Below, in pieces: positions 31,773 to 44,135 of a stretch of 64,000 nucleotides of DNA. This DNA is from Phenylobacterium sp. (GTDB lineage: Bacteria; Pseudomonadota; Alphaproteobacteria; Caulobacterales; Caulobacteraceae). The position numbers were made by a program, and so were the translations under genes. The notes beneath the pieces were generated by a model. It saw only the letters and a list, made by a program, of their open reading frames with translations. It was not told the origin of the DNA and searched no databases. Position 1 is the first letter of the stretch, and every line of letters begins with the position of its first letter. The DNA lies in NCBI RefSeq assembly GCF_035309685.1, contig NZ_DATGEX010000007.1, forward strand, positions 14,643-78,642, read 5' to 3'.

Positions 31773-33050
31773 ATGGACCTGCGGCTGGGCATGGTGCCCG
31801 TGCCGGTCGCCATTGTCGGCGTGGCCGTCACCGCCGCCTTCGTCTGGCTGGGCGCGCCGCCGTCGGACATCCTGATGAACATCGTGGTGCTGGCGGTGGG
31901 CGGCTTCTTCTGCGCCGAGATCGGCAAGCGCACGCCCGGCCTGAAGAACCTGGGCCTGGCGGCGATCCTGGCGACCTTCCTGCCGTCGTACCTGGTCTAC
32001 GCCCACCTGCTGCCGGGGAGCCTGGTGAAGTCGATCACGGCGTTCACCGACAACTCCAACTTCCTCTACCTGTTCATCGCCGCGATCATCGTCGGCTCGA
32101 TCCTGGGCATGGACCGGCGCGTGCTGATCGCCGGGTTCGTGAAAATCTTCGTGCCGCTGGCCATCGGATCGGTCGTCGCCTGCGCCGTGGGCTGCGCGGT
32201 CGGGACGGCGCTGGGGCTGGGGCTGTCGCACACCTTCTTCAAGGTTGTGGCGCCGATCATGGCCGGCGGGGTCGGCGAGGGCGCGATTCCCCTGACCATC
32301 GGCTACGCCAATTTCTCGCACCAGCCGCAGGGCGAGCTGTTCGCGCAGGTGCTGCCGGCGGTGATGCTGGGGAGCCTGACGGCTATCCTGTTCGCGGGCG
32401 CGCTGAACGCCGTCGGCAAACGCTATCCGCACCTGACCGGCGAGGGGCGCCTGCAACCCGGCGAGCAGGACGACGAGCCCTTCGCCACGCCGGACGCTGA
32501 ACGCGCGCCGGTGACCCCGGCCGACGTCGGCGCGGCGCTGGTGATGGCGGTGACGCTCTATCTGGTCGGCGCGCTCGCCCAGAAGCTGTGGAACTGGCCC
32601 GGCCCGGTGGTGATGCTGGCGCTGGCGGTCCTGATGAAGTTTGGCCACGTGGCCTCGCCCAGGCTGGAGCGCGGCGCCTTCGCCAACTTCCAGTTCTTTT
32701 CCCAGGCGGTGACTTACCCGCTGCTGTTCGCCATCGGGGCCGCCAAGACGCCCTGGGAGAAGCTGATCGGCGCCTTCAACCTGCCGACGCTGACCACCAT
32801 CGTCGTCACCGTGGCGACGCTGATGGGGACGGGCTTCGTGGTCGCCCGGTTCGTCAGGCTCTATCCGATCGATGCGGCCATCGTGAACGCCTGCCATTCC
32901 GGGCAGGGCGGCACCGGCGATGTGGCGATCCTCACCGCCGGCAACCGCATGCAGCTGATGCCCTTCGCCCAGATCGCCACGCGGATCGGAGGCGCGATCA
33001 TGGTGACCTTGACTCTGGTCCTGTTCGCGCGCCTCGGCGCCGGCGGCTAG
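31773..33050 (+). CDS. 2-hydroxycarboxylate transporter family protein (CitS/CimH/MleP-like)
   Basis: Polytopic membrane protein with MAGGVGEGAIPL, characteristic of the 2-HCT family. ATG at 31773. The longer ORF start at 31515 would translate the palindromic repeat. Confidence 0.8.
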   Translation: MDLRLGMVPVPVAIVGVAVTAAFVWLGAPPSDILMNIVVLAVGGFFCAEIGKRTPGLKNLGLAAILATFLPSYLVYAHLLPGSLVKSITAFTDNSNFLYLFIAAIIVGSILGMDRRVLIAGFVKIFVPLAIGSVVACAVGCAVGTALGLGLSHTFFKVVAPIMAGGVGEGAIPLTIGYANFSHQPQGELFAQVLPAVMLGSLTAILFAGALNAVGKRYPHLTGEGRLQPGEQDDEPFATPDAERAPVTPADVGAALVMAVTLYLVGALAQKLWNWPGPVVMLALAVLMKFGHVASPRLERGAFANFQFFSQAVTYPLLFAIGAAKTPWEKLIGAFNLPTLTTIVVTVATLMGTGFVVARFVRLYPIDAAIVNACHSGQGGTGDVAILTAGNRMQLMPFAQIATRIGGAIMVTLTLVLFARLGAGG

Positions 33051-33499
33051 TTGGCGCCGCCGCCGTTCTTGGCGATGTAGGCGTCGAGCGCCTCGCGGGC
33101 CTCGCTCTTGCACCCAGGGGTGTCGGCGAGCTTCAGGATGTCGTCCAGGCTGTTGGCGTCAGGGCAGAGCGCGCCGCCGCGGCGGGCCCCGAAGGTGCGG
33201 CCGGCCGGCGGCGGGTCGATCAGCGACTTCAGGCTGTCGAACTTGGCGCCGTCGCTGGCGGCGAGCTTCGCGCCGGGGAGCGTGACGCCGGCCGCGCCGG
33301 CCTGCAGGGTGGTGATCTCGCCGGACGCGCGCATCACGGTCACGCTCTTGCCGGCCGCCACGGGCACGCGCATGCCGGCGTCCAGCGCCATGCCGCGCTT
33401 GATGCCCGGATCCGTTGAGTTGACGACGATGTAGTCGCTGGCGTTCGCCGCGCCGGCCACGCCGGCCGCGAGCAGAACGCCAAGAATGAAGCGACGCAT
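33047..33499 (-). CDS. small secreted protein of unknown function (150 aa)
   Basis: ATG at 33499 has an AAGAGG Shine-Dalgarno 7 nt upstream. Signal peptide MRRFILGVLLAAGVAGAANA. Two Cys near the C-terminus. GC3 bias. No family recognised with confidence. Confidence 0.6.
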   Translation of the reverse strand: MRRFILGVLLAAGVAGAANASDYIVVNSTDPGIKRGMALDAGMRVPVAAGKSVTVMRASGEITTLQAGAAGVTLPGAKLAASDGAKFDSLKSLIDPPPAGRTFGARRGGALCPDANSLDDILKLADTPGCKSEAREALDAYIAKNGGGAN

Positions 33500-33612
33500 A
33501 CGGAACCTCTTGTTCAACCACCGCGCGAAAGCGGTGAGGTTTGTTCTTCTCTAGTACCACAAAGGTACGTGCCGCGGTACCGTTTGGCCTCAAGCAAGGG
33601 TGAGGCCAATTG

Positions 33613-42357: not shown

Positions 42358-42371
42358 GCTGGCGTCTCCCC

Positions 42372-44135
42372 CTAGAAGAAACTGGCGGTCAGGTTGACGA
42401 GCAGGCGCCCCGCGGGCCGCGGGCCCCCGGCCGTCACCGCGTCGATCGGCTTGGCGTAGGTGAGCTCCAGATTGGCCCGGTTGGCCAGCCGCAAGGTCAC
42501 CCCTGCGCCGAAGGACCGCAGCGTCCGGCTGGGGGTCAGGCCCGAGAGGCCCGCCTCGTTGTTGTGTACGAACCCCTGGTCGTAGAAGACGAAGGGCGAG
42601 GCCAGAATCTGGGGATAGAGCTGCACGAAGGCGTAGCGCAGGTCGAGCGCCGCCGCGGCCCCGGTGTCGCCCAGCACGACCGCCGGGTCATAGCCGCGCC
42701 CGACGCTGAGATCGCCCAGCGAAATCTGCTCATAGGGCGTCAGCGCCTTGTCCGAGTATTGCGCCTGCGCGCGCAGGCTGGCGCTGATCGGGCCGGCGAC
42801 CGGGGCGCTGACGCCTGCCGTGGCGCGCACCAGAAAGGCGTCGGGCGCGGCGAACTCGCGGGTCGCCAGGTCCGCGCCCTGGCGGGTCGCGCCCAGGCCG
42901 GTGAGCCCTTTGCGGAGCGTGAGCGAACCGTCCAGCAGGAAGTTCCTGTCGAAGCCGTAGGCGCGCATGTCGCCATCGGCGCGCAGGTAGGCCACCCGGA
43001 CATTGTCCTTGGTGAGCGCGCCCCCGCCGACCTGGCCTTCGCCCTGATCGGTCTCCTGGTTGATGACGTCGAGCCCGCCGGCGATGTTGAGGTTCAGCCG
43101 CCGCCGGCGGATCAGCGGGTAGGAGAGCTCCACATTGCCCACCGCCGAGGTGGTCTTCAGGTCGAGCGGCTTCAGCACGTCGCCCGGCCGGCTCTCGCCA
43201 TAGACCGCGGAGGCGTGGACCATCAGGCCGTCGGCGCCGATCCGCGCGGCCTCCTGCAGCTGGACCACCCACTGCTCGTTGGAATCGAGGGTGTGGAAGG
43301 CCACCAGGGTGGTGTCCTCCCCCAGCGGGGTGAAGCTGCGCGCATCGCCCCGCACCAGCCCGCCCCAGCGGCCGACGGTCTTGGAGCCCATGTTCTGGGC
43401 GTTGCCGACCGCGCTGAAGGCGGTGCGCGAGACCGTGACGTCGATGTCGACCGCGCCGCGCTCCGGGCTGACCGAAGGCTTGATCGCGGCGCGCACCCGG
43501 ACGCCCGGGATATCGGAGGCCAGCAGCAGGTAGCGCTGGGCCTTCTTCATGTCGAAGGGCTTCATGCCCCGCAGCTTCTCGACATAGCGCTCGACCGCGG
43601 CCTGGGCCGGGCCGATGTCGCCGCGCACCCGGACGTTGACCACATGCGCCTCGATCACGTCGAGGATCAGGGCTCCGCCGGCGATCCGTTGCTCTGGAAT
43701 TTCCACGCGGGCCAGGATGCCGCGGTCGAACAGCGTCTGCGCCGCCCGGTCGCGGATCTGGCAGATCACGCCCACCTTCTGCGGCTTGCCGATGAATTCG
43801 CGGTAGGTCGGCCCGAAGTCTTCCGCCTTCAGCGCCGTCGAGCCGCGGAAGGTCACCGCGCCCAGAGTCACCGACACGTCGGAGTCGGCCAAGGGGCAGG
43901 GCCCCGGCGGTTCCGGCTGGAAGATGTCGGTATCGCGCGGCTGCAGACGCGGCACGCGCGCCGCCGGATTGAGTTCCGGGGCCGAAAGTCCTGTGGCGGC
44001 GGCTGACGGGGGAATGGTTCCCGGCGGCGCCCCGCCCGGCGCCGTCTGAGCCCAGGCCGCTCCGGACCCGGTGAGCGCGGTGGCGGCAAAGGCCAAAACC
44101 GTGCGCGTACCGAGGCCTACGCGAAGCGCCCTCAT
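42372..44135 (-). CDS. ShlB/FhaC/HecB-family TpsB outer-membrane translocator (POTRA + 16-strand barrel type)
   Basis: Signal peptide MRALRVGLGTRTVLAFAATALTGSGAAWAQ. POTRA-like N-terminal region. L6-type motif SLGDLSVGRGYDP. C-terminal ...LLVNLTASFF with terminal Phe. ATG at 44135 chosen. Confidence 0.85.
   Translation of the reverse strand: MRALRVGLGTRTVLAFAATALTGSGAAWAQTAPGGAPPGTIPPSAAATGLSAPELNPAARVPRLQPRDTDIFQPEPPGPCPLADSDVSVTLGAVTFRGSTALKAEDFGPTYREFIGKPQKVGVICQIRDRAAQTLFDRGILARVEIPEQRIAGGALILDVIEAHVVNVRVRGDIGPAQAAVERYVEKLRGMKPFDMKKAQRYLLLASDIPGVRVRAAIKPSVSPERGAVDIDVTVSRTAFSAVGNAQNMGSKTVGRWGGLVRGDARSFTPLGEDTTLVAFHTLDSNEQWVVQLQEAARIGADGLMVHASAVYGESRPGDVLKPLDLKTTSAVGNVELSYPLIRRRRLNLNIAGGLDVINQETDQGEGQVGGGALTKDNVRVAYLRADGDMRAYGFDRNFLLDGSLTLRKGLTGLGATRQGADLATREFAAPDAFLVRATAGVSAPVAGPISASLRAQAQYSDKALTPYEQISLGDLSVGRGYDPAVVLGDTGAAAALDLRYAFVQLYPQILASPFVFYDQGFVHNNEAGLSGLTPSRTLRSFGAGVTLRLANRANLELTYAKPIDAVTAGGPRPAGRLLVNLTASFF

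Follow-up and report, generated by a model that had tools for sequence, protein, structure and literature searches.

A two-partner secretion locus of Phenylobacterium with a translationally coupled, exported TPR-CHAT protein, a candidate protease for its exoprotein

Two-partner secretion (TPS) is well studied for adhesins, cytolysins and contact-dependent inhibition (CDI) toxins, and we know of dedicated proteases for only a few of its exoproteins (TpsA). The locus described here lies in a 64,000-nucleotide stretch of Phenylobacterium DNA (G+C ~70%; nearest protein relatives in Phenylobacterium, Caulobacterales), called the window throughout, in which the genes for a TpsB transporter and a TpsA exoprotein are followed directly by the gene for an exported protein with a tetratricopeptide-repeat (TPR)-like region and a CHAT domain. 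Several described systems come close to it. In Pseudomonas aeruginosa, a cysteine hook at the C-terminus keeps the TpsA adhesin CdrA in its TpsB until the periplasmic cysteine protease LapG cuts the periplasmic tail and so releases it (PMC4694147; 10.64898/2026.07.13.738186). Published accounts of FhaB/FhaC in Bordetella describe a dedicated protease, SphB1, that removes the C-terminal part of the exoprotein during maturation (PMC4542190, PMC6070651). DdvA of Myxococcus xanthus is a transmembrane anti-sigma factor with a periplasmic TPR-CHAT region, for which regulated periplasmic proteolysis has been proposed (PMC11506125).

By analogy, the module in the window would work most like CdrAB and LapG, the resemblance being functional only. 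Its TpsA has a C-terminal cysteine pair and a conserved tail, and it is accompanied by a dedicated exported protein predicted to be a cysteine protease. LapG, however, is a transglutaminase-like enzyme (BTLCP) that is encoded elsewhere and controlled by LapD and cyclic di-GMP, whereas the predicted protease here is a caspase-fold TPR-CHAT protein translationally coupled to TpsA, and the tail motif is TGxG[NS]EEIW as opposed to TAAG. Its protease domain is CHAT and not BTLCP, and no LapD-like gene was seen among the genes scanned between 26.5 and 64 kb of the window. FhaB and SphB1 likewise join a TPS exoprotein to a dedicated protease, but SphB1 is a surface subtilisin autotransporter, the FhaB prodomain is ~1200 residues long, and the system is not known to include a CHAT protease or an equivalent tail motif.

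DdvA is the only characterised periplasmic TPR-CHAT protein found in the literature searched, and it is the second-best structural match to the protein in the window (8rw5). It differs in being membrane-anchored, in carrying a cytoplasmic zinc anti-sigma domain and an incomplete active site, in controlling a CBASS/CRISPR island and in having no TPS partner. Craspase (Csx29) and separase share the TPR-CHAT architecture and the His/Cys dyad and are among the top Foldseek matches, but they are cytoplasmic or nuclear and are regulated by Cas7-11/RNA or by securin. The protein in the window does not belong to a type III-E Craspase: it has a signal peptide and TPS neighbours, and it gave no match in PADLOC. 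None of the five proteins of the locus matched a defence system in that search, and we rejected membership of one. Nor is the locus a CDI (CdiBAI) system. Its TpsA contains no VENN or NxxLYN motif and no toxin domain (Pfam, NCBIfam), and a CHAT protease gene lies downstream.

We found no publication that joins the CHAT domain with two-partner secretion or with CHASE2 in a literature search that covers subscription journals thinly, and an earlier description may exist. The module described below represents a large TPS subfamily defined by a conserved TpsA tail, a coupled exported caspase-like protein and recurrent signalling or type VI secretion system (T6SS) partners. It offers a testable candidate pair of substrate and protease for a CHAT enzyme that belongs neither to CRISPR nor to cell division, a possible new control of the surface display of TPS exoproteins, and a lead to the inputs of CHASE2 sensors.

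A conserved TpsB–TpsA–CHAT core

Five open reading frames (ORFs), all co-directional, occupy 33047–44156 on the minus strand and encode TpsB, TpsA, the CHAT protein, a glycosyltransferase and a small secreted protein, matching the five genes of an earlier note made from this DNA. TpsB (42372–44156, minus strand; 594 residues from a GTG, with an alternative ATG at 44135) has a signal peptide and matches Pfam ShlB (E = 6e-15) and POTRA_2 (E = 1.7e-8). These matches agree with its previous assignment to the FhaC/ShlB type, and its POTRA domain and Omp85/ShlB-type barrel are those of a type Vb transporter. The TpsB stop is followed by a 14-nt spacer containing GGGGAG, in which the same note had read a Shine–Dalgarno sequence, and then by the TpsA start. 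A scan for promoters and terminators gave counts at chance level.

TpsA (38491–42357, minus strand) has the 1288 residues and the TPS domain previously ascribed to it. Its signal peptide, its N-terminal TPS domain (Pfam PF05860, E = 1.8e-16; TIGR01901, E = 1.4e-13) and its position next to TpsB are the features of a type Vb exoprotein. The best stretch of the PF05860 match covers residues 76–313 (41419–42132, minus strand), and HxuA (4i84) is the sole solved relative of this domain by sequence. The other regions of the protein are a Pro-rich/Cys-rich hinge, repeats that match no assigned family and a Gly/Ser-rich linker. By its gene content the locus is a true two-partner secretion system, and TpsB-dependent export of TpsA is predicted.

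The CHAT gene (35321–38494, minus strand) begins in the ATGA overlap with the TpsA stop that had been described before, and it encodes 1057 residues. The AlphaFold2 model of the protein (mean predicted local distance difference test score, pLDDT, of 73) comprises a signal peptide (residues 1–30), a compact α/β N-domain (~35–165) with four invariant cysteines, a region of paired helices or helical repeats (~205–640) and the CHAT domain (707–1040; Pfam PF12770, E = 4e-49). The catalytic dyad consists of His896 (codon 35807–35809, minus strand), in the YFATHG motif that starts at residue 892, and Cys945 (codon 35660–35662, minus strand), in the LSACDTGG motif that starts at residue 942. Neither residue varies in alignments A1, A2 and A3 or among the 57 close and 49 distant relatives compared. 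The dyad is thus intact, as had been claimed, and the misalignment with catalytic residues that had been named as a possible refutation did not occur.

Foldseek returned the TPR-CHAT protein of Craspase (7x8a_D), the DdvA periplasmic domain (8rw5, second) and separase as best matches to the model (E = 3e-8 to 1e-7), with low global TM-scores because the orientation of the domains differs. The helical region alone resembles peptide-binding TPR domains such as that of LGN. By sequence alone, the protein matched no solved structure. We conclude that it is a true member of the CHAT family, with the clan CD caspase fold and an intact dyad, and a predicted protease. A canonical lipobox is present in 30 of 101 full-length family representatives, and the remainder have signal-peptide-like N-termini. 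The family is therefore predicted to be consistently exported and at least partly membrane-anchored, which argues for action in the periplasm; the conserved cysteines likewise favour a place in the envelope.

The earlier note had proposed mining the co-occurrence of TpsB, TpsA and CHAT genes across genomes. Our survey took one genome per species and yielded 76 loci (those named individually carry L numbers), and in it the CHAT protein is co-conserved with TPS genes across clades. In all 52 listed loci for which upstream DNA is available and the family-specific N-terminal 700 residues are shared, the CHAT start abuts the end of a long ORF, and the overlap is exactly 4 nt in 43 of them. TpsB was found in 41 related loci, at the same position as in the window, and the TPS domain in 43, down to 30% identity (Parvibaculum). 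Wherever enough upstream DNA is available, a TpsA gene precedes the CHAT relative, down to 26–30% identity. Several Phenylobacterium genomes carry a second, paralogous TpsB–TpsA–CHAT set (L028–L035, L048).

At 21 loci that share the CHAT domain only, in Acidobacteria and others (L056, L058–L060, L062–L079), no TPS genes were found. Only the subfamily with this N-terminal region therefore has the TPS link, and we discarded the idea that it is a general trait of TPR-CHAT proteins. The family-specific region occurs in 574 clusters at 50% identity, mostly from Alphaproteobacteria and 278 of them at E < 1e-10, and nearly all the full-length members are 1000–1070 residues long. Seven distant members were inspected. 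Five are unfused (L080, L081, L083, L084, L086) and have a TPS-domain TpsA immediately upstream in all five cases and TpsB in four, the TpsB position of L081 lying outside the fetched range. The other two, P0354 and P0350, are single-protein fusions of an N-terminal TPS domain to a C-terminal TPR-CHAT region. TpsB–TpsA–CHAT is a conserved three-gene core. The earlier description of the locus as a candidate undescribed system holds in that the literature searched contains no TPS–CHAT pairing, but the arrangement is not peculiar to the window, which is an ordinary case of a module that occurs widely and has apparently escaped study.

The TpsA tail and proposed cleavage

The partner TpsAs range in length from ~750 to more than 5000 residues and share an ending whose elements occur in a fixed order: Y-R-[FI]-N-[GS]-C-x(3-12)-C, a variable linker, an acidic stretch and T-G-x-G-[NS]-E-E-I-W. 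In the window, the cysteine pair is C1167-x6-C1174, within Y-R-F-D-S-C-TLGTNQ-C (38836–38859, minus strand), and nearly all related loci encode a TpsA tail with the pattern [ND]-[GS]-C-x(3-12)-C. The tail motif reads T-G-A-G-S-E-E-I-W-R (residues 1264–1273; 38539–38568, minus strand) and stands 15 residues before the stop. The T-G-x-G-[NS]-E-E-I-W motif lies 1–31 residues ahead of the stop in all clades of partner TpsAs. Distant TpsAs retain the core G-N-E-x-[IL]-W, with examples such as SNDGNSELWG (L080) and SGANEAIWG (L081).

We also ran the test in reverse and searched metagenome contigs for DNA encoding T-G-x-G-[NS]-E-E-I-W. Of the 59 matches, 43 fall at the C-termini of long ORFs. Downstream sequence of 240 nt or more is available for 41 of these, and a CHAT gene of the family follows immediately in all 41, as against none of the 16 matches in short or unrelated ORFs. 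The association between the tail motif and the CHAT gene thus runs in both directions.

Two loci have unusual TpsA ends. In L030 (4637–9917), a single CHAT gene is preceded by a tandem pair of TpsA genes, both of which encode a TPS domain, a cysteine pair and a GNEEIW tail. The tail of the L086 TpsA (~9700–9934) contains L-L-F/L-S-N-D-G-N-R-E three times in tandem and then a final SNDGNRELWGL.

We propose that the exported TPR-CHAT protein cleaves the C-terminal tail of TpsA and so controls the maturation, retention or release of the exoprotein, a proposal to which we give about an even chance. TpsB would secrete TpsA, an exoprotein without a recognisable toxin domain, and the C-terminal end of TpsA would stay in the periplasm, as the ends of CdrA and FhaB do. 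The retained end would comprise the disulfide-capable cysteine pair, which may stop passage in the manner of the CdrA cysteine hook, followed by the flexible linker, the acidic stretch and the T-G-x-G-[NS]-E-E-I-W tail. The CHAT protein, whose gene is translationally coupled to that of TpsA, would be exported by Sec and, in many relatives, lipid-anchored. It would recognise the tail, probably through the helical-repeat region, and then cut it. The cut would set the maturation, retention or release of the exoprotein by the logic of LapG acting on CdrA, with a protease of an unrelated family.

The earlier note had suggested a dedicated maturation or release protease. That the CHAT protein is predicted to be exported and is tied to the TPS pair, by linkage, by the fusions and by the tail motif, upholds this suggestion in part; the periplasmic position of the tail, the role of TpsA as substrate, its cleavage and the consequence of cleavage we infer by analogy with the described systems. 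The two fusions fit cleavage: in them, CHAT occupies the end that, to judge from FhaB, would be the last to emerge.

Several points weigh against the cleavage proposal. The frequent T6SS, kinase and cyclase partners, described below, fit signalling at least as well as adhesin release. The confidence of the CHAT domain model is moderate, with active-site loops at pLDDT < 50. Finally, an arginine follows the motif in most close relatives, but among distant members this position varies, and a cleavage site therefore cannot be assigned. With this arginine, the tail S-E-E-I-W-R of the Phenylobacterium clade that includes the window (clade 1) fits the separase pattern (S/D/E)xExxR (PMC11506125), a fit that may be coincidental given that the arginine is unconserved further away.

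Signalling and secretion partners of the core

The last gene of the locus encodes the small secreted protein (33047–33499, minus strand). Its ORF extends to 33517, and homologues begin at the ATG at 33499, from which the product has the 150 residues and the secretion signal given to it before. After the signal peptide comes the segment P-P-P-x-G-R-T-F-G-A-R-R-G-G, invariant in alignment A4, and after it two cysteines that are invariant as well. The Arg-Arg stretch of this segment, which the model places in a loop of low confidence, could be where the protein is processed. The protein had no Pfam match even at E = 10 and no fold match, and these results, with an hhalign probability of 0.3% for DUF928, rule out a DUF928 or FecR-like protein.

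Homologues of the small protein are found beside CHASE2 cyclases. One adjoins such a cyclase in L002/L003. In L080, a Rhodospirillales operon of the order TpsB–TpsA–CHAT–CHASE2 cyclase, the protein encoded after the cyclase is homologous to the small protein (hhalign 95%, E = 3e-8). The window, too, has a gene for such a protein, in which a CHASE2 sensor is joined to a class III nucleotide cyclase (56534–58375, minus strand; CHASE2, E = 2.8e-23; Guanylate_cyc, E = 8e-10). This protein is 56% identical to the cyclase beside TpsA–CHAT in L002, and its gene is 12.4 kb from tpsB; it is a possible remote partner of the module. Directly upstream of it lies a metallophosphoesterase gene (58376–59233, minus strand; Metallophos, E = 5.7e-19), and a Metallophos gene is near the cyclase in L002/L003 as well. 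A GNAT acetyltransferase gene (56013–56534) lies downstream of the cyclase in the window.

Across the family, three kinds of partner follow the CHAT gene. A T6SS cluster (tssA/ImpA_N, tssB, tssC, hcp, tssF) begins 0–60 nt after it in nine loci (L037, L047, L050, L057, L109, L113, L133, L140, L145), with a 4-nt overlap in L050. Ser/Thr kinase genes stand just downstream in six (L038, L049, L051, L052, L084, L086), again with a 4-nt overlap in L084. CHASE2 cyclase genes follow directly in three, one of which, L080, has the same 4-nt overlap. Both TPS–CHAT fusions are flanked by CHASE2 cyclases, and at one of them a DUF928 protein is encoded as well. In many loci, including L081, L083 and those of the second Phenylobacterium paralogue clade, TpsB–TpsA–CHAT stands alone among unrelated neighbours. 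In L049, a PP2C phosphatase/Rce1-like protein is encoded besides the kinase.

Because the small protein and a CHASE2 cyclase, or elsewhere a kinase or a T6SS, recur as partners, the proposed cleavage by the CHAT protein is probably tied to envelope signalling. We know of no ligand for any CHASE2 domain. The literature searched offered just two related observations: CHASE2 stands next to DUF928 in Nostoc (PMC5587647), and a CHASE2–metacaspase fusion occurs in Trichodesmium (PMC2853523).

The same partners raise an alternative in which the TpsA tail would not be a substrate at all. It would be a ligand or inhibitor that restrains the periplasmic TPR-CHAT protein, as securin restrains separase. 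When the filament is pulled, damaged or fully secreted, the protease would be freed to cut a signalling target, which might be the small protein, the periplasmic part of a CHASE2 cyclase or kinase, or a T6SS component, and the outcome would be a cyclic nucleotide, phosphorylation or T6SS response. We regard this as the main alternative, though an unlikely one. It would explain why partner genes stand directly after CHAT, some of them overlapping it, and why cyclases flank both fusions and travel with the small protein. It also accords with the CHASE2 cyclase and metallophosphoesterase of the window and with the behaviour of the known TPR-CHAT proteases as tightly regulated switches. On the other hand, many loci consist of TpsB–TpsA–CHAT only, and the cyclase of the window is 12 kb away.

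A further step along this line would make the TpsA filament, the periplasmic caspase-like protease and the small protein an envelope tripwire, in which contact or damage is turned into a proteolytic signal read by CHASE2 cyclases, kinases or the T6SS. We consider it rather improbable. If true, it would provide the first candidate input for CHASE2 domains, and a caspase-like proteolytic switch in the bacterial periplasm linked to T6SS firing.

The glycosyltransferase and the wider neighbourhood

Between the CHAT gene and the small gene, the window has a gene for a predicted cytoplasmic GT4 glycosyltransferase (33613–35376, minus strand; Glycos_transf_1, E = 9.5e-14; Glyco_trans_1_4), whose nearest solved relatives are MshA and PimA. 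Its sole ATG, GTG or TTG start, at 35376, overlaps the end of the CHAT gene, as had been observed before; the overlap is 56 nt. Most relatives have a conserved ATG (M-A-N-A-A-I-Q) 35–50 nt past the CHAT stop. In the window, the conserved part of the protein begins near 35270 and the codon at the ATG position is TCC; the conserved ATG is also lost in L004 and L024. A pseudogene, considered on account of this loss, is ruled out because the ratio of nonsynonymous to synonymous substitution rates (dN/dS) is 0.26–0.39, equal to those of CHAT and TpsB, and the gene is therefore live. In L004 and L024, the upstream open frame of the gene contains no ATG, GTG or TTG whatsoever, yet the gene is under purifying selection.

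HMW1C and EtpC are GT41 N-glycosyltransferases. The earlier note had likened the enzyme in the window to HMW1C, and a corresponding reading would make it an integral component of the system that modifies TpsA in the cytoplasm, ahead of export. HMW1A/B/C and EtpBAC do share with the window a glycosyltransferase gene within a TPS locus, but the enzyme here belongs to GT4 and is not co-conserved with the module. In 24 genome loci of clade 1 the gene stands between CHAT and the small gene, and its constraint equals that of the genes around it, which would suit an integral role; the divergent multihaem cytochrome genes of this clade are conserved equally well, however, so plain synteny may suffice to explain the conservation. 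The pair of glycosyltransferase and small gene after the CHAT gene is confined to this one Phenylobacterium clade (at least 64% CHAT identity). Even among metagenomic relatives whose CHAT proteins are 81–85% identical, L105, L108 and L127 have no glycosyltransferase gene and carry the small gene directly after CHAT, and L021 keeps a glycosyltransferase remnant only. Loss of the conserved start codon in the window, L004 and L024 counts against an integral role as well.

The proposed acceptor sites fare no better. The TpsA linkers of glycosyltransferase-containing loci are longer and Ser-richer than those of clades without the gene, and we considered the Ser-rich linker as a target. It was dropped, the glycosyltransferase loci being a single clade and the Ser/Gly-rich linker being retained in L105 and L127, which have no glycosyltransferase. 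At least ten N-x-S/T sites had been pointed to in TpsA. The count is right, at 13, but as a pointer to glycosylation it fails, since 12.1 ± 3.1 are expected from composition-preserving shuffles, and we dropped sequon enrichment as evidence. A glycosyltransferase in L086 was also dropped as a second, independent association; it has only a generic GT1 motif (38 residues, E = 8e-6). HMW1C-like modification of the exoprotein is thus not borne out, and we consider it doubtful. The glycosyltransferase is probably a dispensable, clade-specific addition that lies outside the core system.

A different role for the enzyme appears in a reading in which the CHAT protein acts as a sortase-like transamidase. 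It would remove the TpsA tail and link TpsA covalently to an envelope component, and in clade 1 the GT4 enzyme would help to build a glycan or glycolipid acceptor. The caspase-fold transamidases PorU (type IX secretion) and GPI8 (GPI anchoring) are precedents. A conserved short motif 1–31 residues from the C-terminus, followed by a basic tail, does resemble a sorting signal, and GT4 enzymes of the PimA/MshA type use lipid or small-molecule acceptors. The hydrophobic segment that would follow such a motif is absent, however, most of the family and some close relatives lack the glycosyltransferase, and we know of no CHAT-family transamidase, which also tells against this reading. We hold it to be very doubtful.

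It is most improbable that the CHAT protein is an effector or toxin that leaves the cell together with TpsA: two relatives do carry CHAT inside a TPS-domain protein that could pass through TpsB, but these place it C-terminally, in the part that, if FhaB is a guide, would be the last to leave the cell, the CHAT protein of the window has no TPS domain, 30% of the family representatives are predicted lipoproteins, and no immunity-like gene is conserved.

On either side of the locus lie plus-strand genes. At 26537–33050, two tandem genes for MacB/FtsX-type permeases (801 and 833 residues) are accompanied by one for a 2-hydroxycarboxylate transporter, the stop of which overlaps that of the convergent small gene; the synteny of the transporter is kept only in the closest relatives, L004 and L024. 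Divergent from tpsB, a multihaem cytochrome cluster at 44342–53432 encodes a Cytochrome_C554-like protein (461 residues), an HbpS-like protein (653 residues), a 607-residue protein without a family and an MtrC/MtrF-like protein with LVIVD repeats (1303 residues). The first three of these genes keep their position in all clade-1 loci with sufficient upstream DNA, and multihaem cytochromes, together with CcmF, CcmH and CcmI, are encoded near TpsA–CHAT in L002/L003 too. A minus-strand gene at 55136–55903, flanked by the CHASE2 cyclase gene and the cytochrome cluster, encodes a 255-residue protein with a PEP-CTERM sorting signal, and a PEP-CTERM/exosortase-type protein is likewise encoded near the TPS–CHAT fusion of L085.

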